From positions 35,263 through 99,262 of the forward strand of contig JADFZM010000001.1 in NCBI GenBank assembly GCA_015232535.1: a stretch of 64,000 nt of DNA, given 5' to 3'. This DNA comes from Candidatus Omnitrophota bacterium (lineage in GTDB: Bacteria; Omnitrophota; Gorgyraeia; Zapsychrales; Zapsychraceae). Positions within the stretch are counted from its first letter, which is position 1, and each line of letters starts with the position of its first letter. Under the pieces are notes generated by a model that was not told where the DNA came from, did not search any database, and was given only the letters and a program-made list of their open reading frames with translations. Positions 3,789 through 52,041 of this stretch are shown here, piece after piece. The position numbers and the translations under genes are program-made.

Positions 3789-4063
3789 TATTCTTCATCC
3801 TCAAACAGAGGTTTTTCATCTTCCGGTAATTCTTCCAACTTCTTCCTTCTTTTAATTTCTCCCCCGATTATTGTAAAGGTCCAAAGCGTCGAGATAACAC
3901 CCAAAAAGAAAGACGCCAGAATTATGTAAATCAGCCCGATATGCCTGCCCTTGAAAAGGGGGATCCAAATACGGACCGGGTCCACGTTCTCGAATATAAA
4001 GAAAACAAGCAATATTACGAGCAAACTGAAAGAGGTGATTTTAAATACTGTAGCTGCCCTCAT
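3788..4063 (-). CDS. Small membrane protein, LapA/DUF1049-like, with acidic C-terminal tail
   Basis: Two hydrophobic helices then KRRKKLEELPEDEKPLFEDEE; overlaps hemL stop and CDF start by 4 nt and 1 nt (operon-embedded). Confidence 0.45.
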   Translation of the reverse strand: MRAATVFKITSFSLLVILLVFFIFENVDPVRIWIPLFKGRHIGLIYIILASFFLGVISTLWTFTIIGGEIKRRKKLEELPEDEKPLFEDEE

Positions 4064-5361
4064 TTTGATTCCTTTATTTTTAATAAAGCATTCTTTATTG
4101 AATGGGCTGTTTTGCTGATTGTTGAATTATCATGAGCGGATGAAACAAAACAAGCCTCATATGCCGAAGGAGGAAAAAGTATCCCTTCCTTAATTAAGAG
4201 GGAAAACAGCTTTGCGTATTTGTTTTTATCAGCCCTTAAGGCGTCTTTATGGCTCTTAACTTTTCCGGATGTGAAAAATACCGTAAAAATTGAGGCAATC
4301 GAGTTTATCGTTAAATCCATATTCAATTTAGCGGATTCTTCTTGAATAATCGCGGTAATTTGTCCGGTTTTTACCTCCAGAGTTCCGTAAATATTATCAT
4401 TTTTATTTAAAGTTTCAAGTGTTTTAATGCCGGCGGCTGTTGCAACCGGGTTACCGGAAAGCGTTCCGGCTTGATAAACAGGCCCTATGGGTGCCAAAAG
4501 CTCCATTATCTCTTTCTTACCGCCGACCGCGCCTATGGGAAATCCGCCGCCGATAATTTTTCCCAGGCAGGTCAGGTCGGGTTTAATATCATAAAATCCC
4601 TGCGCTCCGCCTAATCCTAGACGGAAGCCGGTGATAACTTCATCAAATATAAGCACTATTTTTTCTTTGAGCGTTATTTCACGTAATTTTTTAAGAAAAT
4701 CTTTTTCGGGTAAAACTACCCCTGTGTTGCACAAAACAGGTTCAACGATCACGCAGGCAATTTCATTCTTGTTCTTTTCGATAGCGGAATTCAGAGTTGC
4801 AATATCGTTAAAAGGAACGGAAATAGTGTCTTTAGTATAAGCCGGCAATATGCCCTCGCCCGAAGGAATCCCTAAGGTTAAATTTCCCGAGCCGCTTTTA
4901 ACCAAAAGGCTGTCGAAGTGGCCGTGATAACTGCCGTCAAACTTGATGATCTTTGTCTTTCCGGAAAATGCCCGGGCGAGGCGGATTGATGTCATGCAGG
5001 CCTCGGTGCCGGAGGTTACTAAACGTAACCTATCGATGCTTTTGATATTTTTCTTAATTAGTTCAGCGAGGCGGACTTCTCTTTCGGTTGCTAATCCGAA
5101 ACTCGAGCCGTTTCTAACCGCCGAAATAGCCGCTTTTACGACCGGCTCATAAGCGTGGCCTAATATCCCGACCCCCCAACTCATAACATAATCGATGTAT
5201 TTATTGCCTTTTGTATCGAATATATAAGGCCCGGTTGCTTTCTCGGCAAAGATTATCGGGGTTTCCATTGCTTTAAAACTCCGCACCGGAGAATTGACCC
5301 CTCCGACCAGAGATTTGATGCTTCTTTCGGAAATAGATTTTGGTTTATCAATTGCCATCAT
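4060..5361 (-). CDS. hemL: Glutamate-1-semialdehyde 2,1-aminomutase
   Basis: Class III aminotransferase fold, 433 aa, SLVGGVNSPVRSF ... YIDYVMSWG motifs typical of HemL. Confidence 0.93.
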   Translation of the reverse strand: MMAIDKPKSISERSIKSLVGGVNSPVRSFKAMETPIIFAEKATGPYIFDTKGNKYIDYVMSWGVGILGHAYEPVVKAAISAVRNGSSFGLATEREVRLAELIKKNIKSIDRLRLVTSGTEACMTSIRLARAFSGKTKIIKFDGSYHGHFDSLLVKSGSGNLTLGIPSGEGILPAYTKDTISVPFNDIATLNSAIEKNKNEIACVIVEPVLCNTGVVLPEKDFLKKLREITLKEKIVLIFDEVITGFRLGLGGAQGFYDIKPDLTCLGKIIGGGFPIGAVGGKKEIMELLAPIGPVYQAGTLSGNPVATAAGIKTLETLNKNDNIYGTLEVKTGQITAIIQEESAKLNMDLTINSIASIFTVFFTSGKVKSHKDALRADKNKYAKLFSLLIKEGILFPPSAYEACFVSSAHDNSTISKTAHSIKNALLKIKESK

Positions 5362-5843
5362 AATAAACTCCCAAGCGAGAGCATTTCTTTCTTAAGTTCT
5401 TTTCGGGTAAAGAGCACTGCCGGCTTGATGCGGAAACCCGCCCCTTTTTCATTGACAAAATTTCTGATCTCTTTTACTGATTTAGCGTGCATCATGGTAA
5501 ATGTATCGTAATTAAATGATTTATGCGGTGTTCTTTTATAACAATGCGAGATGCGGTCATCATCAATAAATGTCTTTTTTATGAACTCATCTTTATTGCC
5601 GCAGGTAAACCCGTCCATATTCCAGGCGATAAGTGCGTTTTTCGCGTAACCGGCCCTTTTGTGGTTAAGGACCCCTCGCAGATTCTTAATTATCTTTTTT
5701 TGAGAAAGTTTGTTCAGGATCGCTATTAGCTCCTCTTCTTGCATAAGCAAAGCCGCCGCGGCCTTTGTGAATGGACGGGGCGAGATCTCAAGCTCATTTT
5801 TAGAGAAATACCCGGCAACTTTCTTTTCTTTATCAGTTAACAT
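5358..5843 (-). CDS. Siroheme decarboxylase subunit (AhbA/AhbB, NirD/L/G/H family, AsnC-type HTH)
   Basis: About 160 aa AsnC-like HTH plus C-terminal domain; sits with a paralogous neighbour between radical SAM heme genes and hemL. Confidence 0.7.
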   Translation of the reverse strand: MLTDKEKKVAGYFSKNELEISPRPFTKAAAALLMQEEELIAILNKLSQKKIIKNLRGVLNHKRAGYAKNALIAWNMDGFTCGNKDEFIKKTFIDDDRISHCYKRTPHKSFNYDTFTMMHAKSVKEIRNFVNEKGAGFRIKPAVLFTRKELKKEMLSLGSLL

Positions 5844-6300
5844 TAAGGTTAAGCCTTAATTTATATAATTTTTCCGTAGGAAGGCTGACTATTTCCTTTG
5901 GTTTTAACTTCTTTTTCAATTCATCGAGATTAAATTTAAGCTCCTGTTTTGAGCGGGCGCTTAATGTGAACCACATGTTTAAGCGGTGTTCCCTTAAGTA
6001 ATTGTGGCTTATATTTTGTCGGTTATTGATTATTTCCCTAGTCGTTTTTATTTTCTCTTCGGGGATTTGACAACCGATCAAAGTGCTGACAAGCCCGAGC
6101 TTCTTCGTGTTAAAACTGAAATTAATCCTTTTAAGCAGTTTTTCCTTCTTAAGCCATTTAAGGCGCGAAATAAGCTCTCTTTCTTCGATCCCGCATGATT
6201 TTGCCAAGCTTTTATAAGGCTCGGCAGAGATCTCCAAGCCCTGCTGGGTTTTTGATAAAATACTTTTCATTAAATCGTCTAAATAATATTTCTTACTCAT
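5833..6300 (-). CDS. Siroheme decarboxylase subunit (AhbA/AhbB family), start moved to internal Met
   Basis: AsnC-type HTH (LAKSCGIEERELISRLKWLKKEKLL). The ATG at 6298-6300 forms an ATGA overlap with the upstream radical SAM stop; the ORF-track N-terminal extension would overlap that gene. Confidence 0.68.
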   Translation of the reverse strand: MSKKYYLDDLMKSILSKTQQGLEISAEPYKSLAKSCGIEERELISRLKWLKKEKLLKRINFSFNTKKLGLVSTLIGCQIPEEKIKTTREIINNRQNISHNYLREHRLNMWFTLSARSKQELKFNLDELKKKLKPKEIVSLPTEKLYKLRLNLNVN

Positions 6301-7316
6301 GAGGCAACCGCCTCTTTTGCTAAAACGCAAGTCCTGTCTTCGGACATAAAATCTCCCGTATCGGCAAAGGCCCTGGCGCGGCAACCGCGGCAAGAAATCT
6401 TATATCCGCAATCTCCGCAGCTTCCTCTGAGGTCATTTTTCCTCAATGCGTTAAACACAATCGATCCTTTCCAGACTTTCCCGATGGAATTCTTCCTTAA
6501 GTTACCGGCGGTAATGGGCAAGTATCCGCAGGGATAAACGTATCCTCTTGAGGAGATGAATAAAACCGATGTTCCCGCCAGGCATCCTCCGGACATTTTG
6601 CCTTCCGAAAACCTTACATATTGCGGGGCGCAAGTCGGGCGTATCTCTAAAGAAGATGACTCCGAGATGTTTTTTATTTCCCTAAGAGCTTCTTCAATAT
6701 CATTTGCCTCTAATCTTGATTTATCATCGATTTCCTTCCCGCAGCCGACCGGAACAAGAACAAAATAATGAACAGCCATGGCTTTTATCGAAAGAGCTAA
6801 ATCGGCGATTGTGCGGATTTCGTTAAGGTTGTTCTTGGTCACGGTAAAGTTGATTTGAAAAGGGATTTGCTCTTTCCTTAATATGTCAGCGGCATTCACG
6901 GTCTGTTTAAAGGCGCCTAAAACTCCCCGGGAAGAATCATGCTTCTTTTCATCGCTTGAATCAAGGCTTAGGCTGACGCGGCGGACACCGTATTTTTTTA
7001 TAAGGCCGGCCTCTTTCTCTTTTAATAGAACACCGTTAGTAGCTAAGGCCAAAGTTAATCCTTTTTGAGCGGCATAAAACATGATTTCAAAGATGTCTTC
7101 TCTTAATAAAGGCTCGCCGCCGCTTAAGACTAGAACGGAAGAGCCGAAGGATGTTTTTATAGAATCGATCAGGCGAAAGGCTTCGGCAGTTGTCAGCTCA
7201 TCGCCCGATTCGCTTTTTGTCATCCGGCAAAAGGCGCACTTAAGGCTGCACTTTTTTGTTGTTTCCCAAAATATCATTCTGGGGATCAGATCCACTTTGT
7301 TGCCTCCTTGGCCCAA
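6297..7316 (-). CDS. Radical SAM/SPASM protein of the NirJ-like AhbC/AhbD type (Fe-coproporphyrin synthase or heme synthase)
   Basis: CxxxCxxC cluster (CSLKCAFC), SGGEPLL glycine-rich SAM motif, C-terminal SPASM Cys cluster (GSCGDCGYKISCRGCRARAF). Confidence 0.75.
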   Translation of the reverse strand: MGQGGNKVDLIPRMIFWETTKKCSLKCAFCRMTKSESGDELTTAEAFRLIDSIKTSFGSSVLVLSGGEPLLREDIFEIMFYAAQKGLTLALATNGVLLKEKEAGLIKKYGVRRVSLSLDSSDEKKHDSSRGVLGAFKQTVNAADILRKEQIPFQINFTVTKNNLNEIRTIADLALSIKAMAVHYFVLVPVGCGKEIDDKSRLEANDIEEALREIKNISESSSLEIRPTCAPQYVRFSEGKMSGGCLAGTSVLFISSRGYVYPCGYLPITAGNLRKNSIGKVWKGSIVFNALRKNDLRGSCGDCGYKISCRGCRARAFADTGDFMSEDRTCVLAKEAVAS

Positions 7317-8275
7317 TAACTGATAATTATGTCCGCGCCGGCGCGTTTAATAGACTGAAGTATTTCAAGCGCAACCGACTTTTCGTCCAGCCACCCTTTT
7401 AAGTGCGCCGCTTTGACCATTGAATATTCTCCGCTGACATTGTATGCGGCTATAGGGATATTCACTTTATCGCGTATGGATTGTATTATATCCAGATAAG
7501 ACAAGGCCGGTTTCACCATGACTATATCCGCGCCTTCCTCGATATCGAGAAATATTTCGCGAATGGCCTCTCTTTTGTTGCCGAAATCCATTTGATACCC
7601 TTTTCTGTCGCTTCCCTTCGGGGTTGAATCGTATATCCCCCGGAACGGGCCGTAAAAATTCGAAGCATATTTTGCGGAATAACTAATAATTGATGTGTCG
7701 GTAAACCCGTTTTTGTCGAGGGTTTCTCTGATTGCTTTCACCTGCCCGTTTGCCATAGCGGACGGCGCAACCATATCCGCTCCCGCTTTAGCGTAAGAAA
7801 CGGCGATTTTGGCTAAAGTTTCCGCGGTTTTTGAGTCATCAATTTGAAGATGAGCCCCGTTTTTGCCGCTTGTTTTCTTAGCTATGCCGCAATGGCCGTG
7901 GTCTGTAAAAGCGCATAAGCATACATCAGCGATAATTATCAAATCGCTCGACTTTTTAATGTTCTTTATAGCCTTATGGAATTGGCTTTCTTCGTTATAA
8001 CTAGATGAGCCGGAGGAGTCTTTTTTAGGCGATGAACCAAAAAGCAAAATGCTTTTTATGCCGGACTTTCCCAAAGCCTCCGCCTCTCTAAGAAGGCATT
8101 CGCTCGAGAATTTATTAATGCCCGGCATCGAAGGCACAGCTTCGGTACCTTTGCCATCTTTGAAAAAGATAGGCATTATTAAATCATCAATATTTAATTC
8201 TGTTTCGCGCACTAAAGAACGTAACAGAGGGTTTTTTCTTAATCTGGTAGTCTTATTTTTGAGCGACAAAGGCAT
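7286..8275 (-). CDS. hemB: Porphobilinogen synthase (delta-aminolevulinate dehydratase)
   Basis: N-terminus MPLSLKNKTTRLRKNPLLRSLVRETELNIDDLIMPIFF aligns with classical HemB start; active-site region DVCLCAFTDHGHCG; the start at 8275 is an internal Met of the ORF-track call. Confidence 0.92.
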   Translation of the reverse strand: MPLSLKNKTTRLRKNPLLRSLVRETELNIDDLIMPIFFKDGKGTEAVPSMPGINKFSSECLLREAEALGKSGIKSILLFGSSPKKDSSGSSSYNEESQFHKAIKNIKKSSDLIIIADVCLCAFTDHGHCGIAKKTSGKNGAHLQIDDSKTAETLAKIAVSYAKAGADMVAPSAMANGQVKAIRETLDKNGFTDTSIISYSAKYASNFYGPFRGIYDSTPKGSDRKGYQMDFGNKREAIREIFLDIEEGADIVMVKPALSYLDIIQSIRDKVNIPIAAYNVSGEYSMVKAAHLKGWLDEKSVALEILQSIKRAGADIIISYWAKEATKWI

Positions 8276-8325
8276 TTTTATTAAATTGTTGAAATCGTTT
8301 ATATTGTTAAGCTGTTTGATCAAGG

Positions 8326-9483
8326 TTAAAGTATTGATTTTGATTCGTTTACTAAAACATCCTCTGTTTTTGTTGAAGTTTGCTCTAAGTAACAAGCCGG
8401 GTCTTCAGCCCAAAGTGAGCCGTAATAAGCCTTTGCCCGGGCCCGGCATCCGCCGCATATTTCTTTATGCCGGCAAGAACCGCAGCGGCCTTCTAAGTGG
8501 TCTTTCTTATTTCTAAATTGTTGAAGCAGTTCATTGTTCCGGTCGTTAAGAATATCAAATAGCGGTTTTTTGCGCACATTGCCTAAGAGCGAATCACGCA
8601 AGAATTGACATGGAAAAACGTCGCCGTTTGAATCAAGATAAACAACCCTATCCCCCGCAGAACAGCCGCGGTGCGCTGTTATGCATGAAACAGCCTCTTT
8701 TTTATCCGCAAGGTTTTCAAGCATAAAAATACCGTCTGCAGGATTATCGGTTGTAAGCACTTCAAATTCAGGGTCTTTAAGTGATATTTCTCGGACCTTA
8801 AGCAAGAATTTCTCCATTAATTTCCTTTTGTCCTCCAGAGGCAGGTCTTGTTCTGACGAAGCCCTTCCGGAATATACCAAATGATAAAGGCAGAAGCGCT
8901 TAGTGCCGCTTTGAACTGTTTTATCAAGCACATAAAATAGGTCATAACTATTTGAAGCGGTTAAAGTAAATCTTACCCCGGTTTTCACTCCGGAATTGTT
9001 TAAGAGCTTTATACCTTCCCAGCTTGCGTTAAATGAGCCGGTAGAGCCGCGGAAAATATCATGCCATTCTTCCCTGCCGTCTATGCTGACTCCTACATAA
9101 TCGACTTTGGCTTCTTTGATCTTCTTGGCCATTTTGGTATTTATCAAGGTGCCGTTAGTTGAAAGCCCGACGCGCAGCCCTTCGTCCTTGCAGGCTTTGA
9201 TAATATCGAAAATATTAGGGCGTAAAAGCGGCTCCCCTCCGCTAAGCAATACAATCGGGGGGTTTAGCTTCTTGATCTCACTTGCCAGGTTTATGCACTC
9301 TGTATCGGTAAAATCAGCTTCTTTTAATTCCGGAGATGATTCGCGATAACAATGAGCGCATTTTAAATTGCATTTGCTTATAATATTCCAGACAAACAAA
9401 GGGCCCATTGCCCTTAAGGTATGTTCGGTCCTCTCGCCTTTATGTATTTTAGTCCATGGGATCATAATGAATTCTCCAGGCAA
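8326..9483 (-). CDS. Radical SAM/SPASM protein of the NirJ-like AhbC/AhbD type
   Basis: CNLKCAHCY cluster, LSGGEPLL motif, C-terminal SPASM cluster (GRCGSCRHKEICGGCRARA). Confidence 0.75.
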   Translation of the reverse strand: MPGEFIMIPWTKIHKGERTEHTLRAMGPLFVWNIISKCNLKCAHCYRESSPELKEADFTDTECINLASEIKKLNPPIVLLSGGEPLLRPNIFDIIKACKDEGLRVGLSTNGTLINTKMAKKIKEAKVDYVGVSIDGREEWHDIFRGSTGSFNASWEGIKLLNNSGVKTGVRFTLTASNSYDLFYVLDKTVQSGTKRFCLYHLVYSGRASSEQDLPLEDKRKLMEKFLLKVREISLKDPEFEVLTTDNPADGIFMLENLADKKEAVSCITAHRGCSAGDRVVYLDSNGDVFPCQFLRDSLLGNVRKKPLFDILNDRNNELLQQFRNKKDHLEGRCGSCRHKEICGGCRARAKAYYGSLWAEDPACYLEQTSTKTEDVLVNESKSIL

Positions 9484-10970
9484 GATTTGATCAATCCGGC
9501 AACCGTATGTTCTTTTGCCGAATGTATCTGCCTTATCCCGATTTTCTTGAGCATCCCGGTTGTGACAGGGCCGATAGAATAAAACGGGGTCTCTTCGGTT
9601 AAGGAGCCGTTTATATTGCTTGGAATATTGGCAAAGAATGTTTTAACTGATTTAGGGCTTAAAAAGAATATTCCGTCGGACTTCTTGGCGAGGGCCTTGG
9701 CTATCCTTGTTTTATCGGGCTGCCCTTCAATGTTATACACTGTGCAATCGGTTAGCTTAGCCCCGGCTCTAATTAAAATTCCTTTTAGATAATCGCGGTC
9801 AAGGCTTGTGCGTAAAAGAGCGATATTTTTATCATTAATACCTTTATTTCTCAGAGCTATGGCTAAATTCCTGGTGGTGAACTTATCCGGCATAAGCGCC
9901 GGGTTTATACCGAATTTTATGAATTCTCCCGCTGTTCCTGACCCGACGCAAGCAATCCTTCCTTTTAGCAGGGTTTTATTTCTGTTTAATGCAAAAAATC
10001 TCTTCAGAAAATAATATACGCCGTGTCGGGAGGTAAAAACAAGCCAGTCAAAGGCCTTAATATCGGCGATTATGTTATCAAGGTATGATGTGTCCTTATT
10101 TGGAACGACTTTTATCATCGGTAGTCGTTCAACCTTAGCGCCTAATGATTCTAACCCGAGGGAAATATCATTGTTTAATGTTTCGCTGGCTGTTGAGATA
10201 AAACTTTTGTTTGAAAGAGGTTTTAAGTTAGGATTCAGGCGGTAAGCAAGCTTAACCGTATCGCCTATAACACAGATAGCCGGAGCTTTTAAATCAGCGG
10301 ATTTATTGGCGATCCGAGCTAAATTAGACATAACAACTTTTTCTTTATCCGTCGTGCCACTTTGAATGACAGCGGACGGAGTTTTAGGGTCTTTACCGAA
10401 GGCGATGAGTTTATCGGTTATTGATTTAAGGTTAGATAATCCCATCATGATTACTAGAGTTCCCGAGAAATTGGCGGCGTGTTTCCAGTTTATGCTTTCT
10501 TTTTCTTTAGACGGGTCTTCGTGGCCGGTTAAAACCATAAAACCGCTTGAAACGCCACGGAAAGTGAGAGGTATCCCGCACACTTCGGGAACAGAATAAA
10601 AAGAGCTTACTCCCGGAATAACTTCGCAATCAATATTGTTTTCTCTTAAAAACAGCATTTCTTCCTGGCCGCGGCCGAAAATAAAAGGATCGCCGCCTTT
10701 AACTCTGGCGACTGTCTTGCCTTTTGAGGCAAAAGATAGGATGGTTTGGTTTATCTTTTCTTGATCTATCGATCGTCCCTTTTCTTTTCCTACAAATTTT
10801 AAGATTGCGGATGGCTTGGCATATTTTAATATGTCTTTGGAAATAAGCCGGTCGAAAAGGATAACGTCTGATTTCTTCAGGCATTCAACGGCTTTGAGGG
10901 TTAAAAGCTTAGGGTCCCCCGGTCCTGAGCCGATCAAATAAACTTTTCCATTTTTTATTTTATTATTCAT
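9462..10970 (-). CDS. cobA: Uroporphyrinogen-III C-methyltransferase fused to uroporphyrinogen-III synthase
   Basis: N-terminal half has the SUMT signature (VYLIGSGPGDPKLLTLKA ... VARVKGGDPFIFGRGQEE); C-terminal half is HemD-like (AFDWLVFTSRHGV). Confidence 0.88.
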   Translation of the reverse strand: MNNKIKNGKVYLIGSGPGDPKLLTLKAVECLKKSDVILFDRLISKDILKYAKPSAILKFVGKEKGRSIDQEKINQTILSFASKGKTVARVKGGDPFIFGRGQEEMLFLRENNIDCEVIPGVSSFYSVPEVCGIPLTFRGVSSGFMVLTGHEDPSKEKESINWKHAANFSGTLVIMMGLSNLKSITDKLIAFGKDPKTPSAVIQSGTTDKEKVVMSNLARIANKSADLKAPAICVIGDTVKLAYRLNPNLKPLSNKSFISTASETLNNDISLGLESLGAKVERLPMIKVVPNKDTSYLDNIIADIKAFDWLVFTSRHGVYYFLKRFFALNRNKTLLKGRIACVGSGTAGEFIKFGINPALMPDKFTTRNLAIALRNKGINDKNIALLRTSLDRDYLKGILIRAGAKLTDCTVYNIEGQPDKTRIAKALAKKSDGIFFLSPKSVKTFFANIPSNINGSLTEETPFYSIGPVTTGMLKKIGIRQIHSAKEHTVAGLIKSCLENSL

Positions 10971-11862
10971 TAATCTTTTTCAACTGTATCTTTAAACTGG
11001 CGATTAAATTGTCTGTAATTCCTGAGGCATTGTCTTTCGCCCCTTTTTCACTTTCCTTTATGAAACATTTTGCTTTTTCGCTGTAATATTTCGCGTTTAT
11101 TGAAAAGTTGCCTTTAATAAATTTGGCATAAACACCGAACGGTGTCCGGCAACCTATTCCTAAAGCTTTCAATACATTTCTCTCTAAAAGAGCGGATTTC
11201 TCCGTTTCAATACAAGAGCTTTTTCTAAGAATACTGTTTAAATCCTTATCGTTATCCCTTGTTTGAGCGCAAATTATGCCTTGCCCGGCCGCAGGGACAA
11301 AGCTTTCGCTGTCGAAATACCGGACGATCAAGTTTTCATATCCTAATCGTTTCAAACCGCAAGCAGCCAATATAAGCCCGTCGTATTTGCCCCCGTTCAT
11401 CTTTCTGATGCGGGTATCGATATTCCCTCTTATGGGCAATACAATCGCTTTGGGCTCGATTTCTTGTATAAAGTACATCCGACGCGGGCTGTCTGTGCCG
11501 AGCTTCAAACCCGCGAGTTGGCCCGATTTTAAACCATCGCGCAGTACCAGGCAATCTCTTCGGTCTTCTCTTTTGGCGAAACAGGACAACTTAGTGCCTT
11601 TTTGAAGTTTCACCGGGACATCTTTTAAACTATGCACGGCGCAATCAATTTCTTTATTTATAAGTGCTCGCTCGATTTCTTTTGTGAAAATGCCTGTTCC
11701 GATAGCCGTAATCTTATTTTTGCGGTCCCGGTCGCCTTGGGTCAGGATAGTTTTTATCCGGTAATCAAGGTTTACATTCTTTCTTTTTAAAAAGGCTATG
11801 AATTCAAAGAGCTGTTTATTCGCTAAAGCGCTTTTCCTTATACCAAAGATTATTCTGCGCAT
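10963..11862 (-). CDS. hemC: Hydroxymethylbilane synthase (porphobilinogen deaminase)
   Basis: KTILTQGDRDRKNKITAIGTGIFTKEIERALINKEIDCAVHSLKDVP motif block. Confidence 0.9.
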   Translation of the reverse strand: MRRIIFGIRKSALANKQLFEFIAFLKRKNVNLDYRIKTILTQGDRDRKNKITAIGTGIFTKEIERALINKEIDCAVHSLKDVPVKLQKGTKLSCFAKREDRRDCLVLRDGLKSGQLAGLKLGTDSPRRMYFIQEIEPKAIVLPIRGNIDTRIRKMNGGKYDGLILAACGLKRLGYENLIVRYFDSESFVPAAGQGIICAQTRDNDKDLNSILRKSSCIETEKSALLERNVLKALGIGCRTPFGVYAKFIKGNFSINAKYYSEKAKCFIKESEKGAKDNASGITDNLIASLKIQLKKINE

Positions 11863-12905
11863 AAAAGTAACGAAGGAAGTACGCCTGTGTTCTTTTTCTG
11901 ATCGAGGTACATTTCCCTTCGGATTATCTCCTCCGCTTTGTTCGCTTCGATCGAGCGGCTATAGAGTGTTCTATCAATTACCGGCGATAAGTCATCGATA
12001 TTGTATAGCTTTACACCGGCAATATTCCTAACCGCTTCCTCAACATTTCGAGGCACGCCAAGATCGACGAAAATAATTCTTTTATGACGGCCGTGCAATA
12101 TCGCGCTCACCATATCTTTGCTGATAATATGAGGAGCGGCAGTGGCGGCGACAACTATATCTGAAAGCGCGATTTCTTTTGCTATCTTTGAGAAATCGGT
12201 AACGCGCACGTTAAGCTTAACTGCGGCGTTTTTGGCTTTTGCTATATCGCGGTTTGTAACAACGATTTCCTTAAGGGGAAGCTCGGATAGTTTCTTTGTT
12301 GTCATAACGCCTATTTTCCCGGCGCCGATTACAAGAATTCTTTTATTCGATAAATCCTGTTCCTTTTTAATAAGGTCGACAACAACTCCGGATATCGAGG
12401 TAACTCCGCGGGATATGCCGGTCAAGCTGCGAACTTTCTTCCCTATGCGCAGGGAATCCTGAATAGTTTTATGCAGTATAGAGCCTATTGCCTTTGATGA
12501 ATCGGCTTTTTCATAGGCCTTTTTGATCTGGCCGAGGATCTGGTTTTCTCCTAAAACCATTGAGTCCAGGCCGCTCGCCACCCGGTTAAGGTGTATGACC
12601 GCCTCTTCGTTGGTTTTATTGTAGAAGTAATGCTCAATATAACTTTGCGGTAATTTATGCGTGCGGCAGATAAAATTTGTCAGCTTAGCGGTAATTTTAG
12701 AAATGCTTTCTCCTACGGCATATATCTCGACCCGGTTACATGTTGAGAGCATCAAAGCCTCTTCTATATCCAAATTGGATGATAGTTCGCGGTAATATTT
12801 ACTCAGCGATTTATCCTCAAAGCTGAATTTTTCGCGTATTTCTAGCGGGGCCTTTTTGTGGTTTGTCCCGATAAGAACAATATTTAAGTTATTGCTGATA
12901 GGCAT
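11850..12905 (-). CDS. hemA: Glutamyl-tRNA reductase
   Basis: LSTCNRVEIY catalytic Cys motif; NADP-binding LVIGAGKIG. Confidence 0.9.
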   Translation of the reverse strand: MPISNNLNIVLIGTNHKKAPLEIREKFSFEDKSLSKYYRELSSNLDIEEALMLSTCNRVEIYAVGESISKITAKLTNFICRTHKLPQSYIEHYFYNKTNEEAVIHLNRVASGLDSMVLGENQILGQIKKAYEKADSSKAIGSILHKTIQDSLRIGKKVRSLTGISRGVTSISGVVVDLIKKEQDLSNKRILVIGAGKIGVMTTKKLSELPLKEIVVTNRDIAKAKNAAVKLNVRVTDFSKIAKEIALSDIVVAATAAPHIISKDMVSAILHGRHKRIIFVDLGVPRNVEEAVRNIAGVKLYNIDDLSPVIDRTLYSRSIEANKAEEIIRREMYLDQKKNTGVLPSLLLCAE

Positions 12906-13677
12906 GATGGCTTACCATAAACAGGCTTACGCCGAAGAAAGTTGTTAACATGGCTAAAAATCCCACAACCGAGATGACCGATAGCCAAAAGTGTTTAAGT
13001 TTAAATGCTTTTTCCAGGATCACAGCCAAAGCGTAAATTATAAGGGTGATTAGCGCCCAGGTCTCTTTTGGGTCCCAGTTCCAATAAGTTCCCCAGGCTG
13101 TATGCGCCCAAATCGAGCCGGTCGCTATGCCGAAGAATAAAAGTATTACTCCGAAAATAATAAGGCCGCTATTCAAAGGCTGAAGGCCTTTTGTGTCTTT
13201 GCCCCTTTTCTCGGCGATTATCGAATAAACGCTTATAGCAAAAGAAATCCCAAAGGCGCTGTAACTTAAAATAATTGCCGGAACGTGTATTCCCAGCCAA
13301 AAACTTTTTAAGAGCGGGTTAAGCGGTTGGATTGTTTTATCCAGCGTTAGGTCGTATATTAAGATAATATCAAACAATAAAAACGCCAATCCCTGTATGA
13401 TCTTCCCGGTATTTTCTTTGATAAAAATGATATAGACAGCGCTTAAAAGCCAGGCGTAAAAATAAGTGATCTCAAAAAGCGAGACCATTGGCAGATGCCC
13501 CTGTTCGCGGTACCTTATAATAAGGTAAAAGAAACCGGCGGTTAAAGCGACTATCAGCCATTGCTTTGAGTAAGTGAAAAAAACGGGCTGCTTTTTGGAA
13601 ACGAAAAGAAGATACAAAACAGTCCCGATCAGATAAAAGAATGCGGATGTATAGAAAAATAATATGTTATATTGCAT
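12889..13677 (-). CDS. CcsA/HemX-family cytochrome c assembly membrane protein
   Basis: Polytopic membrane protein with Trp-rich WWD motif (WAHTAWGTYWNWDPKETWALI) and conserved His residues; it occupies the hemX position of the hem operon. Confidence 0.78.
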   Translation of the reverse strand: MQYNILFFYTSAFFYLIGTVLYLLFVSKKQPVFFTYSKQWLIVALTAGFFYLIIRYREQGHLPMVSLFEITYFYAWLLSAVYIIFIKENTGKIIQGLAFLLFDIILIYDLTLDKTIQPLNPLLKSFWLGIHVPAIILSYSAFGISFAISVYSIIAEKRGKDTKGLQPLNSGLIIFGVILLFFGIATGSIWAHTAWGTYWNWDPKETWALITLIIYALAVILEKAFKLKHFWLSVISVVGFLAMLTTFFGVSLFMVSHHAYQQ

Positions 13678-14122
13678 TAGCTAGTTTATCCCTAATTGCT
13701 TTTGCTTTTGCCGGGCTTTGGCCGTTTGTAGAAATACCTATGGTCAGCCCTTTTCTTTTTAATATTGCCGGCATTATTATTGAGCCCGGCCCGCTTTTAT
13801 CTACTACATTGACTAAGGTATTCGCTTTATTAGCGTCGGATAATACTTTCTTATTGACTTTAGCGTTATCTGTTGCCGCTACTATCAATTTATATTTCTT
13901 TAATGAAATATTCTTAGGATAAAGGGATTTTATGCATTTTATCTTCCCTTTTGACCTTAAACGTTCAATCGGCGCGATTATTTCCGGGCTGATACAGGTA
14001 ATTTTTGCCCCGAAATTTCTGAAGACCGATATTTTCCTATAAGCTACTTTTCCTCCGCCGACGACCAAACAATTTTCGCCTTTTACCTTGAGGCATACCG
14101 GCATATAGCTGCATAATTTCAT
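13667..14122 (-). CDS. Precorrin-2 dehydrogenase / sirohydrochlorin ferrochelatase (SirC/CysG N-domain type)
   Basis: Rossmann GGGKVA motif (CLVVGGGKVAYRKI); about 150 aa; first gene of the heme operon. Confidence 0.78.
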   Translation of the reverse strand: MKLCSYMPVCLKVKGENCLVVGGGKVAYRKISVFRNFGAKITCISPEIIAPIERLRSKGKIKCIKSLYPKNISLKKYKLIVAATDNAKVNKKVLSDANKANTLVNVVDKSGPGSIIMPAILKRKGLTIGISTNGQSPAKAKAIRDKLANAI

Positions 14123-14132
14123 GTCAGTTAAT

Positions 14133-15323
14133 TTACCTCTTTTTTAAAATAATATGACAAACATTACATTTCCCGCGGTATTCATGCGGGGAAACAGCTC
14201 CTTTTAATATAGGAGGAGGATTAGGCAAAATATCTCCCGCATCAGTCGGCAGCTGTCCTCCTGTTTTCATAATAATATGACAGGCGGTACAAGGCTTATT
14301 ACGGCTTCTGTGCGGGCTAAGAGCTCCGGGTGTTATCGGTTGAGCGGCCTCGTTTTGTGAAAACCCTAAACTTCTTTTTGATGAAATAGTATATTCGATG
14401 ATTTGCCCTCTGCGGGAAACTATAACCTTAGCCTTAAACCTGTTTTTTACCATTCTGGTTGCTTCAGTAAAAGCAACTAAATCCGGGGTGGCTATCTTTT
14501 CAATTCCAACAACCATATCTCCGGCCAAAACTCCCGATTCAGCCGCCTCGAGAGATATCTCATCGATCAACAACCCCTTTGTATTCGGCGGGATATTGAA
14601 TTCCGTGGCTAACTCAGGCGTAAGGGGAATAAGCTCCATACCGAGCCAATGCCCTTCGATAAGTTCTTTCGATGCCGCCCCTTGCTCTTTAGGAGTAGGC
14701 AGCTGCAAATTAGGGTCAACCGGAGCCGCATTCATTGTGCCGGCTTCGGCTGTTTCTGCCGGAGAATTATTGGCAAAAGCGATTTGATGAGCCGCAGGAT
14801 CGGCATTGTTTTGCTGTTGGGGTTTAGCTTCTAAGGGTACAGAGTTAGAATCCCCGGGAGCGTTTTTACCCGTAACGCCCATATCAAGGTTAAAAACGCG
14901 CTTGATATTGTCATGAATGCCTAATTTGTTTTCCAGGGTTATATAAAGCGGCTGGCCGTTTCTTAATATATCTAAAAGAGCGCCTTGGTCCAAGCTTGTA
15001 TCTTTCGTAACCTTTAGAAAGTCGGATATTTTCTTTGTTTTCTTATTATTGATCGATTTTATAAGGTCTCCGCTGCGTACACCCGAACTGTAAGCCGGAT
15101 CCTCACACCAATTTACAACAACCCCAGCTTCATCTTTCGGTATATAAAATTCCATGGCATTAGCCGGTGTGATATCGCTTACCGACATTCCGGCCCACTC
15201 TGCCTCACCTGCCCCGATGTGCATCAGCGCCGCGAGAAAAATAAGGCCTATCAAGCAAACGGATAATATAAGGAAGAACCTTTGCTTGTTTTTATGTTTA
15301 TATTCGGCTAAGATGTTAGGCAT
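14133..15323 (-). CDS. Membrane-anchored PDZ-PDZ protein with two C-terminal CxxCH heme motifs of magnetochrome type (MamP / MamE-Cter-like)
   Basis: N-terminal TM, two PDZ-like segments (GVRSGDLIKSI; GVLAGDMVVGIEKI), then SPHRSRNKPCTACHIIM and SPHEYRGKCNVCHIIL. Confidence 0.6.
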   Translation of the reverse strand: MPNILAEYKHKNKQRFFLILSVCLIGLIFLAALMHIGAGEAEWAGMSVSDITPANAMEFYIPKDEAGVVVNWCEDPAYSSGVRSGDLIKSINNKKTKKISDFLKVTKDTSLDQGALLDILRNGQPLYITLENKLGIHDNIKRVFNLDMGVTGKNAPGDSNSVPLEAKPQQQNNADPAAHQIAFANNSPAETAEAGTMNAAPVDPNLQLPTPKEQGAASKELIEGHWLGMELIPLTPELATEFNIPPNTKGLLIDEISLEAAESGVLAGDMVVGIEKIATPDLVAFTEATRMVKNRFKAKVIVSRRGQIIEYTISSKRSLGFSQNEAAQPITPGALSPHRSRNKPCTACHIIMKTGGQLPTDAGDILPNPPPILKGAVSPHEYRGKCNVCHIILKKR

Positions 15324-15335: not shown

Positions 15336-15611
15336 TTAGTCTTTTTTGATGGAGGCTTTTTCTTCTGGTTTTAACTCGATCCGCTCAATTGCCGTATTAC
15401 AATCTTTACAGACCCAAAGTTGTCTTTTAGACCCGGTCATGTATAAGCCCATAATGAGTAAGGGTATCCCCAGAACCGGACCGATGAAAAAAAGCGATGA
15501 AAATACACCGCCAACTATTAATACTCCTCCGAATTTACGGCTGTGGCGCGGCCCGGAATAAGGCTGCATTTCTCCGTTACACAAATTACAAATAAGCGAT
15601 TTATCAGACAT
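15336..15611 (-). CDS. Small membrane protein with split zinc-ribbon (CxxC ... CxxC) flanking a TM hairpin
   Basis: CNLCNGEM at N-terminus, hydrophobic core, CKDCNTAI at C-terminus; 91 aa. Confidence 0.45.
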   Translation of the reverse strand: MSDKSLICNLCNGEMQPYSGPRHSRKFGGVLIVGGVFSSLFFIGPVLGIPLLIMGLYMTGSKRQLWVCKDCNTAIERIELKPEEKASIKKD

Positions 15612-15878: not shown

Positions 15879-17411
15879 TTATCTGGGTTTCTTACCGATT
15901 CCGACTTTAACCGAGCTTGGTGCTTGCTGTTGCGTTGTATTCCCCATTATCTGATGACAATTTGAGCAGACTCCCCTATATTCGTGCGTCATTGCAGCAT
16001 TAGGCGAAATAGGCGGCGCTGTTACTTGCACTTGTTGAGCTGCCTGAGCTACCGGAGCAAAGCCCTGATTATTGAAGTTTTGCTGGGCATTATATTGATT
16101 CGGGTAATAAGCACCTCCACGGGCCATGATCTGTTTGCAGTTAGGGCAACGGGGAAATTCATTGGCGCCGTTTTGTGAATACATCCTCCAATTGCAATTT
16201 GGACAAAGGAAATAACCGAGCGATTCCTGTCCTTGCCAGAAGTTTGGCTGGTTAACAGTCGGATTCGCTTGCATTTGGTTTTGCATTTGATTCGGCATTT
16301 GATTTGCCGCTAATTCCGGCAATTGCGGCCAACCGTTATTTGCCATATCTTTTGCCATCTGTGATCCGCAATTCGGGCAATTAGGATAACCATTGCCTGT
16401 GTTGGCAGCTTTTAATCTCCAGTTGCAAGAGGGACAAACAAATGGCTGTTCTCCCCACCCAAATGCAACTTGTGTCCCCGGGTTGAGTTTATTCATTGTA
16501 TCAGGATCGGGTAAATTCATCCCTTGTACCATTGCCCCTTGCATCCATCCCTGGCGCGGAAGCGGACAGACCGGACGCATTACATTCATATTCTGCATCC
16601 CCCATCCTGCATTCATCGCATCCGGCATCAATTGTCCGGCGGTAGGATATACTTGCCCGATAGGATTCATATCCTGAATTCCGAACGCTACACCCTGCCC
16701 GGGAATTTGCTGTTGCATTCTCAAGCGGCAATTGGGGCAAATCGGGCATATGTTAGAGTTGTTATTTCCGGCTTGCTGAAACTTACAATTGGGGCAGTAA
16801 AACATACAGCCCCCTCCCTGTCCTTGGCCGGCAAAACCGGCTTGGGCTACGGGCATACTATTCGCTTGCATTTGGCCTGGATTAATGGGTAATGAAGCTT
16901 GGCCGATCCTTGCCTGACGGTAAAGGTTAATTACTTTCTTGGTCGAGCCCGTATACCCGCCGAAAACTCGAATTCCGAATTGCATCAGAATATTATAACT
17001 TTGCGGGTCGATATTTCCGACAATAACCGCTTCCTCTCCTTTTCCCGCCACCAGATAAGCGATTTGCGGGTTAGGAACAGTGCCGTAATAAAGGTTCGGG
17101 ATCGCCTCCTCGAGTTTCTTTGTAAGAGGGTTTATTACTAAGAAGAATTTGGCTTGCTGCAATGAAGGCGCGACATTCGAATTAAAAGTGGAATTATCAG
17201 CGGCAACAACGATTTTTCCGCAAGCCGGATTACCTTGATTTTTAGACTTAATGTCAGGTGAGAATATGGCGTATACGCCAATAAGTAAAACAAGGATAAT
17301 AGAGGCAAAGATAAAATATGTGTTCATATCCATATCCTTTACCCTGGCTTTAAAATCCTCAACGGTTATCGTAGGGATTTTGCTTGTTTTGGCTTTCATA
17401 TTCTTTATCAT
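15879..17411 (-). CDS. Chimeric membrane protein: TM anchor, NifX/NifB-C-like (Nitro_FeMo-Co-type) domain, Gln/Asn/Met-rich region with three CPxC...CPNC knuckle pairs, and a C-terminal magnetochrome-type CxxCH
   Basis: FFLVINPLTKKLEEAIPNLYYG ... AYLVAGKGEEAVIVGNIDPQSYNILMQFGIRVFGG; CPNC/CPSC pairs spaced 11-13 aa; THEYRGVCSNCHQIM near the C-terminus. Confidence 0.6.
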   Translation of the reverse strand: MIKNMKAKTSKIPTITVEDFKARVKDMDMNTYFIFASIILVLLIGVYAIFSPDIKSKNQGNPACGKIVVAADNSTFNSNVAPSLQQAKFFLVINPLTKKLEEAIPNLYYGTVPNPQIAYLVAGKGEEAVIVGNIDPQSYNILMQFGIRVFGGYTGSTKKVINLYRQARIGQASLPINPGQMQANSMPVAQAGFAGQGQGGGCMFYCPNCKFQQAGNNNSNICPICPNCRLRMQQQIPGQGVAFGIQDMNPIGQVYPTAGQLMPDAMNAGWGMQNMNVMRPVCPLPRQGWMQGAMVQGMNLPDPDTMNKLNPGTQVAFGWGEQPFVCPSCNWRLKAANTGNGYPNCPNCGSQMAKDMANNGWPQLPELAANQMPNQMQNQMQANPTVNQPNFWQGQESLGYFLCPNCNWRMYSQNGANEFPRCPNCKQIMARGGAYYPNQYNAQQNFNNQGFAPVAQAAQQVQVTAPPISPNAAMTHEYRGVCSNCHQIMGNTTQQQAPSSVKVGIGKKPR

Positions 17412-17448: not shown

Positions 17449-18036
17449 TCATTTTAACATCGGCGAATAAGGTATAGCCGGACCGAAGACCGGAGAACCG
17501 AGCTGCCAGCTACCTTTATTTGTGCCCATTAAAGGCCCGTATTGATAATCGAAGGGAATTGTTATGAATATCTTCTTCCCATCGCGATATACATCCAGGA
17601 AAATACCTCCGGAGTATTTCACATTATTAGCCAGGTCGGCAAAATCCTGGGCGGATTTTATAGGTTTTTGTCCGATGGAAACTATCACATCCCCTGATTT
17701 AATCCCGTACTTTTGAGCAGGGCCAAGGCCTTCGTCCAGTACAAGCACCCCTTTTATCTTTTTTGGAATTTTGAATTCTTTCCTTAAACTGCGGGAAAGA
17801 TATATCACATTCATACCGATCCAGTTCATACTATCGCCTGGTTCGATCAGAGTATTTTTAACGGCAGTTGTCGGTTCGGTTCGTTCAGGCGCTTCGGGAA
17901 TAATTTCTAAAGATGATAATATCCAGCAGAAGGCTATAATAGAGAAGATAACAATACCGACAAACATTACCGGTTCCTTTTTCGCGAATTCCTTAACCTT
18001 GATTTTAAAATTATTGAATTCTTTATTTTTTTTCAT
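17449..18036 (-). CDS. Membrane-anchored PDZ domain protein
   Basis: N-terminal TM, PDZ core (KGVLVLDEGLGPAQKYGIKSGDVIVSIGQKPIKSAQDFADL). Confidence 0.7.
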   Translation of the reverse strand: MKKNKEFNNFKIKVKEFAKKEPVMFVGIVIFSIIAFCWILSSLEIIPEAPERTEPTTAVKNTLIEPGDSMNWIGMNVIYLSRSLRKEFKIPKKIKGVLVLDEGLGPAQKYGIKSGDVIVSIGQKPIKSAQDFADLANNVKYSGGIFLDVYRDGKKIFITIPFDYQYGPLMGTNKGSWQLGSPVFGPAIPYSPMLK

Positions 18037-18039
18037 AGT

Positions 18040-19467
18040 TTATTGTATTTTTACCAGAATTTCGTCTGTTTTGCCGTTTCTTAATATTCTAACGTTTACC
18101 CCGTCTCCGCTTTTAAAGTGCGCGACTACATTCCTTATATCCTCGGCTGATTTAATTGGTACACCGGCTATAGCGACAACTATATCTCCCCTTTGTATCC
18201 CGGCGAAACTAGCCGGCGATTCGTCCAATACCCTATTTACCAAAACCCCTTTCCACGGAGATATTTTGAATTGCCGCGCGATTATCTCGTTTATAGGCAT
18301 AACTTCTAATCCGAAACGTACCGGAAGCGGCGCTCCGGGCGCGGGATTGGTTGTGGGCAAAGCCGCGGCCAGCATACCTTTTCTATCAACCGGAAGAGGG
18401 AAATTTCTTTTTAAAGCCTTTCCTAAGAAATCTTTGCAATCATTTATCGGAATAGCGAAACCTGTGCCGCTAAAAACACCGGTCGGAGCGTAAATTGCCG
18501 TATTAATGCCGATGACATCTCCGTTTAAGTCAACCAGCGGCCCACCCGATGAGCCGCGATTTATAGGAGCATCGGTTTGGAATAAATTTTGGTAACGGAT
18601 TCCTTCAATCAAGATCGATTTTCTTATCCCGCTAATGATACCGCTGGTGACGGTTTGCTCTATCCCGAAGGGGCTTCCAACGGCAACAACGTAATCGCCT
18701 ATTTGGCTGAAACTGGAATCGCCTAATTTTACCTCGGGGAACGGGCCGTCCGCTCTTAATTTTACGAGCGCTAAATCTAAATTCGGTTCCTCCGCTACGA
18801 TGTCTGCCCTTATATCGCGGGAGGGATTGCCAAAGACCGTAACTATAATATCGGTCGCGTCTTTTGTTACGTGATAATTAGTGAGCACGTAGCCGCGTTC
18901 ATCGATCACAATCCCTGCTCCGACATTTTCGTAACCTTTATTCTCGATGAATTTATCAATGGCACCGTCGAAGGGCGGAACAAATTGCATGTTTTGCGCA
19001 TCGGCAGGTTTCCTTATGTTCGTTCGAACAACCCTGATCGCGTGTATATCGCATACGGAAGGAATTATGGCGTTTACAGCATCTTTTAATGAATTTTGAA
19101 ACTTGCTATCGGTATTCGCGACTAACTGCATACCGCCGTTAGGAGTAGCTTTAGTTATTGCCGCGACTTTATAATTGGAAGACGGATTTTGATTTGGCTG
19201 ATAAGGAACACCTCCGTTAGGAAGAGCTTGGGTTATCGCCTGTGCCTGAGTATAGGCTGCTTGAGTGACCGGGGACGGAAATTGGGGCTCTCCTGCCTTT
19301 GGCATCTTGATTTTTGCCCTGGTATTTACAGTTTCGGTCTCAATTCCCTGGTTTATGTCTTCATGCCGCATTATTACCCAGAAAAGGAGCATAACCCCGA
19401 CTACGGCAAGCGCCGCAATCCAGGGCCCGAGAGGCTTTGTGCAAAATGAATCGTTAGGGTCTTCCAT
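18040..19467 (-). CDS. HtrA/DegP-family trypsin-like serine protease with C-terminal PDZ and N-terminal TM anchor (MamE-like)
   Basis: Intact catalytic triad: LTNYHV (His), DLALVKL (Asp), NRGSSGGPLVD (Ser); PDZ GIQRGDIVVAIAGVPI; no CxxCH in this polypeptide. Confidence 0.85.
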   Translation of the reverse strand: MEDPNDSFCTKPLGPWIAALAVVGVMLLFWVIMRHEDINQGIETETVNTRAKIKMPKAGEPQFPSPVTQAAYTQAQAITQALPNGGVPYQPNQNPSSNYKVAAITKATPNGGMQLVANTDSKFQNSLKDAVNAIIPSVCDIHAIRVVRTNIRKPADAQNMQFVPPFDGAIDKFIENKGYENVGAGIVIDERGYVLTNYHVTKDATDIIVTVFGNPSRDIRADIVAEEPNLDLALVKLRADGPFPEVKLGDSSFSQIGDYVVAVGSPFGIEQTVTSGIISGIRKSILIEGIRYQNLFQTDAPINRGSSGGPLVDLNGDVIGINTAIYAPTGVFSGTGFAIPINDCKDFLGKALKRNFPLPVDRKGMLAAALPTTNPAPGAPLPVRFGLEVMPINEIIARQFKISPWKGVLVNRVLDESPASFAGIQRGDIVVAIAGVPIKSAEDIRNVVAHFKSGDGVNVRILRNGKTDEILVKIQ

Positions 19468-19956: not shown

Positions 19957-20265
19957 CTATCCGTTCTTAAAACGGACTCCGAAGCCGCCTCTGGGATTTT
20001 CCCATTTGATCGCGCCATCCGTACATATAACCCGACAACTTCCACATTCTAAACAATTTTCGTAGGCAACTTCTATTGTCCCATGATTCTCTTCGTATGA
20101 TTTGGCCGGGCACACAATAAGGCAAGCTTTGTGCTGGCATTTCTTGCATATTTTCTTATTTATCGTAATATGGCTTATCTTATCCTTTTTGTTTTTTACC
20201 AAAAAAAGCTTATCTTCAATGGATAATTTCTTGTTCTGCTTGTTTTCTTGTTCTAAGGTTTTCAT
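19957..20265 (-). CDS. fixX: FixX-type ferredoxin-like protein
   Basis: C-terminus [32 protein letters not shown] matches the FixX family. The start at MKTLEQ gives an ATGA overlap with the fixC stop; the ORF-track start at 20289 is also possible. Confidence 0.78.
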
Positions 20266-38760: not shown

Positions 38761-38987
38761 AACTCCTTTTGAGGTATAATTTCGATAAGGTGGGCTAAAC
38801 TTCTATCTAGTGCCAAGCGGCATCCTCCTAAACCGACAATTAGGTTATTCCCTGAAGTGTATTGCATTATCTCTACTTCTTTGCCTGAAACAAAACCTAA
38901 TTCAGCTAAAAATATTTTTAAATCAAACTTACCGCGTAACCCGACTACAACTCCCTTGTTTCTAAGCCCTAACATTGAAAGAGGCAT
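38757..38987 (-). CDS. feoA: FeoA family protein
   Basis: SH3-like FeoA fold, LAELGFVSGKEVEI; 4 nt overlap with feoB. Confidence 0.85.
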   Translation of the reverse strand: MPLSMLGLRNKGVVVGLRGKFDLKIFLAELGFVSGKEVEIMQYTSGNNLIVGLGGCRLALDRSLAHLIEIIPQKEL

Positions 38988-39019
38988 ATTGATTCTCCTT
39001 TAAAACAGAATGGTTAAGA

Positions 39020-39247: not shown

Positions 39248-39272
39248 TCTTGCTCCCTTCCATTATATTAGT

Positions 39273-39295
39273 CGTGAATTTGATAATCATTATCA
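39273..39295. promoter_or_regulatory. Fur box (gtgaatttGATAATCATTATCag) in the feoA-feoA-feoB promoter
   Basis: 19 bp palindromic Fur consensus match 25 nt upstream of the feoA start. Confidence 0.6.
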
Positions 39296-39314
39296 GTAAA
39301 TTCTCAAAAAAATA

Positions 39315-51968: not shown

Positions 51969-52041
51969 TTCGATTCGTACGATGATGTTCTCTCTGACGA
52001 CTTGTGGCCAAGCCCATTATTTCTCCCTAGAGAGGATTAAA

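Follow-up and report, generated by a model that had tools for sequence, protein, structure and literature searches.

A MamP Orthologue with an Additional N-Terminal PDZ Domain in an Omnitrophota Magnetosome Gene Cluster

A stretch of 64,000 nucleotides from a Candidatus Omnitrophota bacterium (contig JADFZM010000001.1, positions 35,263 to 99,262 of the forward strand; assembly GCA_015232535.1), called the window in the following, carries an open reading frame (ORF) for a 396 aa protein with two PDZ domains and two CxxCH motifs. The ORF is located at 14133..15323 on the minus strand, as are all the window features whose coordinates are given below. Such domains occur in MamP as well as in MamE of the magnetosome machinery, and the question raised by this locus is to which of them the protein corresponds. 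It could be a form of MamP, the only magnetochrome protein of known structure and the redox enzyme of magnetite biomineralisation that is best understood, or the C-terminal part of a MamE protein split into two genes, as was suggested in a preliminary description of the sequence. We show here that the protein, although distant, is clearly orthologous to MamP and carries in addition an accessory PDZ domain and a tether that are typical of the phylum.

A MamP Core with Two Magnetochromes

The C-terminal part of the protein (aa ~212–396) is a MamP core by its sequence, fold, motifs and pocket residues. In a phmmer search against all PDB chains the top match was MamP of strain MO-1 (4JJ0/4JJ3; E = 5.1e-37 for 4jj0_A), with a nearly gap-free alignment of residues 218–394 to positions 61–235 of the chain. 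The runners-up were HtrA PDZ domains, at 2e-9. The NCBIfam MamP model scored 209.6 bits (E = 7.5e-62), as compared to 40.6 bits for MamE, 26.3 for MamX and 16.1 for MamT. The last two models covered only the magnetochrome (MCR) region, and the protein belongs to neither of the corresponding families. An AlphaFold2 (AF2) model of the monomer, built on an alignment of 75 sequences, reached a mean predicted local distance difference test score (pLDDT) of 78. When this model was submitted to Foldseek, 4jj0_A/B and 4jj3_B came on top (E = 2.5e-17, target TM-score 0.71), with 42% identity over 174–179 aligned columns of ~180 residues, followed by HtrA proteases at 1e-10. The preliminary description of a MamP-like double magnetochrome protein devoid of a protease domain thus agrees with phmmer, Foldseek and NCBIfam.

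The first element of the core is the PDZ domain at aa 212–322 (14358..14690), which begins with the invariant lead-in LPTPKEQ and was modelled with a pLDDT above 90. This domain escaped the Pfam PDZ models, yet it could be matched residue by residue to the PDZ of MamP in 4JJ0. The connector QNEA (aa 323–326, 14346..14357), placed by the 4JJ0 alignment and by the AF2 model, leads to the haem-binding part, and short strands were visible around it at 323–325 and 328–330.

The magnetochrome was defined by Arnoux et al. (PMC3971196) as psi1-X5-9-PH-X5-9-CX2CH-psi2, and a search with this pattern returned exactly two matches in the protein. Magnetochrome 1 (MCR1) covers aa 327–350 (14274..14345; A327-X9-P337H338-X6-C345TACH349-I350) and magnetochrome 2 (MCR2) covers aa 372–391 (14151..14210; I372-X6-P379H380-X5-C386NVCH390-I391). 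Between the two lies a spacer of 21 aa (aa 351–371, 14211..14273), a MamP-like length; a passage of PMC3905215 gives 17 residues for the spacer of MO-1 MamP. The twin CxxCH motifs, estimated beforehand to lie about 40 residues apart, are real and begin at 345 and 386, 41 residues from each other. The number of CxxCH motifs expected from composition is 0.002, and two motifs were found in none of 200,000 shuffled sequences. The Pfam MCR model (PF18509) matched two stretches of the protein with 53.2 bits, for a cutoff of 30.4. At E ≤ 0.1, the Pfam scan returned no cytochrome family besides MCR, so that the resemblance to ordinary cytochromes envisaged in the preliminary description was not observed. 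The PH and CxxCH of both magnetochromes were invariant across the 75 homologs.

The same description had designated the sixth-ligand histidine and the acidic pocket, or crucible, as the places to be looked at. The distal histidines are in place, in the PH pairs at 337–338 and 379–380, and the five crucible residues are conserved. A passage of PMC3905215, citing Siponen 2013, lists Glu91, His93, Glu98, Glu123 and Glu193 as the conserved pocket residues of MO-1 MamP. Through the phmmer alignment with 4JJ0 (chain index = residue number − 25), the residues listed there correspond, in that order, to E223, H225, E230 and E255 in the core PDZ and to E325 in the connector. All five were invariant in the 75 homologs, which represent four architectures. 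No further protein with two CxxCH motifs is encoded in the window. Since the only other CxxCH protein is a neighbour with NifX-like and magnetochrome domains, described below, there is no second MamP candidate in this stretch.

Organization of the Protein

The ORF starts with an ATG, and the N-terminus of the product, MPNILAEYKHKNKQR, agrees with that of the homologs, indicating that the start codon is right. The protein is identical to NCBI MBF0384287.1, encoded on a 112.8-kb contig of a Candidatus Omnitrophota metagenome-assembled genome, where it is labelled 'PDZ domain-containing protein'. From the N- to the C-terminus it consists of a transmembrane (TM) helix, a PDZ domain, a disordered tether, a PDZ domain and the two magnetochromes. 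Its length and all the segments initially proposed, including the Pro/Gln/Asn/Ala-rich linker, were recovered by Pfam, hydropathy, the 4JJ0 alignment and AF2. The TM anchor (aa 15–35, 15219..15281) had a mean Kyte-Doolittle hydropathy of 2.9, and a helix was present at 2–35 in the AF2 model. It is preceded by a Lys/Arg-rich stub, which points to an N-in, C-out topology with a cytoplasmic stub. Neither Trypsin nor Trypsin_2 was matched in the Pfam scan, and the protein is therefore without a protease domain.

In sequence and fold, in its motifs and pocket residues and in the position of its gene, the protein is equivalent to MamP. Like MamP of MO-1 (4JJ0/4JJ3) and of Magnetospirillum AMB-1 and MSR-1, it has a TM anchor, a PDZ, two magnetochromes with a short spacer and the five acidic-pocket residues, is encoded next to mamM and mamB, and shows 42–43% identity in the core. 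It differs by the presence of a PDZ (aa 40–131) and a tether of ~80 aa between the anchor and the core, for a total of 396 aa as compared to ~270. It originates from Omnitrophota, whereas the canonical MamP is from Proteobacteria. A search of the open-access literature found no description of a two-PDZ MamP.

The Additional PDZ Domain and the Tether

The N-terminal PDZ (aa 40–131, 14931..15206) was recognized by the Pfam models PDZ_1 (E = 1.3e-9) and PDZ_2 (E = 2e-7) and was modelled with a pLDDT above 93. This domain, not found in canonical MamP, is kept across Omnitrophota together with the tether. In BLAST comparisons its best score was with the core PDZ of a multi-PDZ MamP-core protein from KSB1 (MFC1562681.1, P0081; 35% identity, E = 2.5e-20), followed by the neighbouring PDZ-only protein encoded at 17449–18036 (36%, E = 2.9e-16) and the core PDZ of the protein itself (30%, E = 1e-12). 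The similarity was weak with the PDZ of the cluster MamE (E = 2.2e-7) and with the protease-linked PDZ of forms in which a protease is fused to the core (E = 4.9e-6). Residues 30–140 were also searched by themselves against 1.84 billion representatives. The best matches outside the family were P0082 (E = 1.5e-35) and P0122 (TM-PDZ-PDZ-core-2 MCR; E = 4e-32), and the matched regions were the first PDZs, likewise placed after the TM, of multi-PDZ MamP-core proteins. Next came proteins with the layouts protease-MCR-PDZx4, TM-MCR-MCR-PDZ-PDZ and TM-PDZx3 plus a C-terminal domain, and last the generic HtrA PDZ2.

The N-terminal PDZ is acidic at two pocket positions (E40 and E42). Three of the four crucible residues borne by the core PDZ are absent from it, E42 standing for the histidine and Ser47 and Trp72 replacing the equivalents of E230 and E255. 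A second iron pocket in this domain is therefore unlikely and was rejected. Joined to the core by a flexible tether, it would most likely serve in protein docking and thereby place the oxidase at the membrane or regulate it there.

The tether (aa 132–211, 14691..14930) is a disordered segment of 80 residues containing 14 Ala, 9 Asn, 9 Pro and 6 Gln. The pLDDT fell below 50 for positions 147–199, and the length varied from 29 to 130 aa among homologs. Alignment of the homologs revealed a short linear motif, AFANNSPAETAEAG, at aa 182–195 (14739..14780). The motif (F-A-N-x-S-P-A-E-T-A-E) was found in 39 of 66 Omnitrophota-type homologs and was missing in the more divergent ones. In AMB-1, MamP is proteolysed in a MamE-dependent manner (PMC4794232). 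This dependence, the conserved motif and the nearby MamE gene make the tether plausible as a processing or docking element. More speculatively, the tether may be where the protein is processed by the MamE protease encoded nearby.

Predicted Mechanism and Alternative Functions

In MO-1 MamP, a PDZ-mediated dimer arranges four haems around an iron-binding acidic pocket (PMC3840617; PMC3971196). In vitro, oxidation of Fe(II) by MamP yields ferrihydrite and magnetite, and pocket mutants do not complement (PMC3840617; PMC3971196); its iron oxidase activity is also reported in PMC11648623 in addition to PMC3840617. On this basis, we propose that the single N-terminal TM helix would anchor the Omnitrophota protein, the remainder being in the magnetosome lumen or in the periplasm. 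C345/C348 and C386/C389 would be the sites of covalent haem attachment, the proximal ligands being His349 and His390 and the distal ones His338 and His380. If the MO-1 crystal structure is taken as a guide, the C-terminal module (aa ~212–396) should dimerise via its PDZ, and the dimer would form an acidic pocket (E223, H225, E230, E255 and E325) with four haems, exposed to the solvent, around it. Within this pocket, Fe(II) would be bound and oxidised to Fe(III), which would feed the growth of the mineral. By this analogy, we expect a di-haem iron oxidase that is tethered to the membrane and faces the lumen. As a whole, the observations are very probably best explained by a MamP orthologue of the Omnitrophota magnetosome cluster acting as a predicted Fe(II) oxidase. 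Several points weigh against this explanation. The score of 209.6 bits is below the NCBIfam equivalog cutoff for MamP, which is 300 bits (NF040965), and the identity with the MO-1 core is 43%; the orthologue is called distant for these two reasons. The extra PDZ and the long tether depart from the canonical MamP architecture. The MCR regions of the AF2 model were of moderate confidence (pLDDT 44–76), which can be ascribed to the absence of haem from the model, and the mineral formed by Omnitrophota is uncertain (PMC7449369).

A different function would be that of a magnetochrome electron shuttle or scaffold, in which the two haems relay electrons from one partner to another, the NifX/MCR neighbour being an example of such a partner, and the PDZs are interaction modules only, perhaps in a greigite-type pathway. 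The MamT and MamX magnetochromes are thought to serve electron transfer (PMC3840617), a second magnetochrome protein is encoded in the cluster (the NifX/MCR neighbour), Omnitrophota Mam proteins were grouped with greigite-type clusters in one study (PMC7449369), and in AMB-1 the global balance of Fe(II) and Fe(III) is not governed by MamP (PMC11648623). The invariance of the five iron-pocket residues in 75 sequences can nevertheless hardly be accounted for unless a metal is bound, the scores of the MamT and MamX models were very low, and the fold match spans the entire PDZ-MCR1-MCR2 unit of MamP. We consider this function to be improbable. The protein is almost certainly not an ordinary periplasmic c-type cytochrome or PDZ protein which would be unrelated to magnetosomes and look like a magnetochrome protein by chance. 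Its generic NCBI label would be compatible with this, as would the distance of ~10 kb to the main mam genes in the window; however, MCR was the only cytochrome family matched, the shuffled sequences did not reproduce the two motifs, MamP was the best match in both structure and sequence, and the conserved mam cluster was present in every locus examined.

In the proposal of a split MamE, the protein would be the C-terminal half and the redox and PDZ regulatory partner of the protease encoded at 18040..19467. This separate gene, already noted in the preliminary description, does encode a MamE-type HtrA protease with a TM, a trypsin domain (Trypsin_2, E = 3.7e-30) and one PDZ. The His/Asp/Ser triad is plausible and apparently intact, and neither CxxCH nor magnetochrome is present. 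The absence of magnetochromes and the single PDZ of this protease speak for a split, as do the PDZ and magnetochrome content shared with MamE and the existence of relatives in which a trypsin domain and a PDZ are fused in front of the same core, these relatives aligning over 88–90% of the protein. Like alphaproteobacterial MamE, the protein has PDZs of the HtrA-related class and belongs to a magnetosome cluster. The arrangement of that MamE is protease-MCR-MCR-PDZ-PDZ, with an insert of 30–60 aa between the MCRs (PMC3971196). The protein is without protease and without this insert, and its PDZ-then-MCR order, opposite to that of MamE, is MamP-like, as is the 21-aa spacer. The NCBIfam MamE score of 40.6 bits, against 209.6 for MamP, came from aa 170–280 alone, and the five crucible residues are all conserved. 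Four genes separate the protease from the protein, which has its own TM anchor. The N-terminal PDZ resembles the PDZs of MamP type (E = 2.5e-20) more than it does the protease PDZ (E = 2.2e-7). In Desulfovibrio magneticus RS-1, from which the Nter/Cter names originate, MamE-Cter (DMR_41090, renamed FmpA) possesses three PDZ domains and no haem-binding domain (PMC4287615). According to this published description, FmpA resembles the protein in its PDZ domains, its membrane anchor and the proximity of its gene to a separate one for a MamE-type protease, and differs from it by the lack of two haem motifs and of a MamP core. A PDZ is already present in the protease itself, and a gene at 17449..18036, 3 nt downstream of the protease gene, encodes a 195 aa protein with a TM and a single PDZ which, by description, is the nearer analogue of a PDZ-only MamE-Cter such as FmpA; its homolog is a separate gene in all Omnitrophota loci. 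In addition, the split had been presented as known from both deltaproteobacterial and Nitrospirae clusters, when PMC9840458 reports it for Desulfobacterota and a MamE for Nitrospirota. A split MamE appears highly improbable, also in view of the phylogeny of the core.

Relatives of the MamP Core

A neighbour-joining, distance-based tree of the core was rooted on MO-1 MamP (~186 columns, 38 taxa, 200 bootstraps). Omnitrophota-type proteins with the N-terminal PDZ were monophyletic in 190 bootstraps, and the protease-fused forms in 199. The latter grouped with ~300-aa MamP-like proteins containing a zinc ribbon (199 bootstraps) and were never sister to the clade of the Omnitrophota protein (0/200). 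A recent fission of a protease-fused form as the origin of the protein was rejected on this last ground. From their placement in the tree, the fusions are best interpreted as the capture, in a different lineage, of a MamP core by a protease. A separate clade (174 bootstraps) was made up of uncharacterised proteins from other phyla, in which the MamP core is combined with several PDZs. These proteins, among them P0081 and P0122, share with the Omnitrophota protein the core and the first PDZ after the TM, and occupy its place before mamM (L015). They differ in that the first PDZ is separated from the core by an additional PDZ and, in many cases, by a third magnetochrome.

Overall, the highly conserved MamP core (LPTPxEQ...EGHWLG...twin CxxCH) was found in at least four architectures (examples are P0087, P0088, P0110, L021:3824-5650, L022:4707-6270, P0081 and P0122): with an N-terminal PDZ, with a zinc ribbon, with one or more extra PDZs and a third magnetochrome, and behind a trypsin domain and a PDZ with three magnetochromes. 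In some short MamP-like proteins the zinc ribbon, CPxCG...CPxC, is fused at the N-terminus. The iron pocket, the haem ligands and the fold are strictly conserved in Omnitrophota and across these architectures, which supports the idea that the crucible mechanism is widely shared among magnetotactic bacteria and is not specific to Proteobacteria. The fusion of the core to zinc ribbons, PDZ/MCR units or a protease suggests modular ways of positioning or regulating the oxidase. For annotation, proteins now called 'PDZ domain-containing' or 'hypothetical' can be named MamP, and the split-MamE names should not be applied to them.

The Magnetosome Gene Cluster

A scan of the GTDB species representatives returned 22 loci, whose ORFs were compared with those of the window. 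Fourteen of them (L001–L014) are labelled Omnitrophota, with the exception of L008 (Planctomycetales). Lin et al. 2020 reported 20 Omnitrophota genomes of magnetotactic bacteria (PMC7602337). The gene order was kept in L001–L014. It begins with a helix-turn-helix (HTH) regulator, FixC and FixX in some genomes, a 73-aa protein, the MamE-type protease and the TM plus PDZ protein, and continues with a NifX-like/zinc-ribbon/magnetochrome protein, a 61-aa protein in some genomes, a 91-aa protein, the MamP orthologue, MamM, MamB, MamA and MamQ. In most genomes mamM is directly 3' of mamP. In the window, the MamM-like (2898-3788; NCBIfam MamM, 249.9 bits), MamB-like (1931-2884; NCBIfam MamB, 239.5 bits), MamA-like (844-1689; TPR, 123.2 bits) and MamQ-like (101-805; LemA, 99.7 bits) proteins could be assigned. 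Owing to the conserved order and to these assignments, the mamP gene is considered to be part of a bona fide magnetosome gene cluster. A scan for promoters and terminators did not reveal operon boundaries, the numbers of hits being at chance level (39 for 38.4 expected, and 27 for 24.2).

The 91-aa protein (15336..15611), composed of a CxxC, two TM helices and a second CxxC, is encoded 12 nt upstream of mamP. Its gene always adjoins that of the MamP core, upstream in Omnitrophota and downstream in Hydrogenedentota/Sumerlaeia (L016–L020). The NifX-like/zinc-ribbon/magnetochrome protein (15879..17411, 510 aa) was characterized by Pfam and a motif search. It has a TM, a NifX/FeMo-cofactor-like domain below threshold (24 bits), three CPxC zinc-ribbon pairs within a Gln/Asn/Met/Pro-rich region and a C-terminal magnetochrome, MTHEYRGVCSNCH. 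In RS-1, the 'MamP-like' protein FmpB (DMR_41100) combines a magnetochrome, a PDZ and NifX/NifB (PMC4287615). FmpB and the Omnitrophota MamP are both magnetochrome proteins of deep-branching magnetosome clusters, and the latter is without the NifX/NifB domain. The 510-aa protein is the closer analogue of FmpB, which it resembles in domain content, with a different domain order and no PDZ.

In other Omnitrophota loci (L005:15724-17526; L003, L006 and L008–L014), a gene downstream of mamQ encodes a 600-aa protein with an N-terminal PDZ and a transporter of CitMHS/ArsB type. This protein may be a MamO-Cter/MamN-like component. The equivalent gene would fall just beyond the 5' end of the window.

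A Haem-Synthesis Block between mamP and mamM

The most unusual feature near mamP is a block of 11 haem-synthesis genes (4060..14122), starting 10 nt 3' of the mamP stop codon and located between mamP and mamM. Its products are a SirC-like precorrin-2 dehydrogenase, a CcsA/HemX-like protein in which a haem-handling WWD motif (WGTYWNWD) is present, HemA, HemC, a CobA-HemD fusion, two radical-SAM/SPASM proteins similar to AhbC/D, HemB, AhbA, AhbB and HemL, which amounts to a complete haem pathway by the sirohaem route. It was confined to the window and its three nearest relatives (71–75% identity; L001:11167-21166, L007:11183-21158 and L002:9802-12310). In ten other Omnitrophota-type loci mamM directly follows mamP. 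FixX-like ferredoxin and FixC-like FAD oxidoreductase genes (19957-21578), between the HTH regulator and the first gene of the mam cluster, are restricted to the same four genomes as the haem block (the window, L001, L002 and L007).

In the open-access literature searched, haem or cytochrome-maturation genes inside magnetosome clusters were not described. Cytochrome c maturation has been noted as a requirement for magnetosome formation (bioRxiv 10.1101/2023.01.31.526216). The embedded haem operon is a concrete lead on the link between cofactor supply and magnetosome formation. It is conceivable, although we regard it as unlikely, that the Omnitrophota MamP is a tethered and regulated oxidase in which the N-terminal PDZ and the linker motif AFANxSPAETAEAG would serve for docking and cleavage by MamE or another protein of the cluster, with mamP being co-transcribed with the haem block in this sublineage. 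This hypothesis implies that the oxidase core would be positioned or released on demand, and that magnetochrome maturation would be tied to a dedicated haem supply.

Other Genes of the Window

Two tandem actin-like genes were observed at 28991-30196 and 30147-31181, with a 50-nt overlap (Pfam Volactin, E = 6e-71 and 2e-73). The two proteins are 36% identical to each other and both carry the S-x-G-x-G phosphate-2 motif reported to be diagnostic of Mad28. For this reason they are probably two Mad28 paralogues, encoded ~10 kb from the mam genes. Iron-handling genes are located upstream of the cluster, at 36649-39749 and 51300-54073; they correspond to FeoB, Fur, a VIT1-family protein and a ferritin-like protein.

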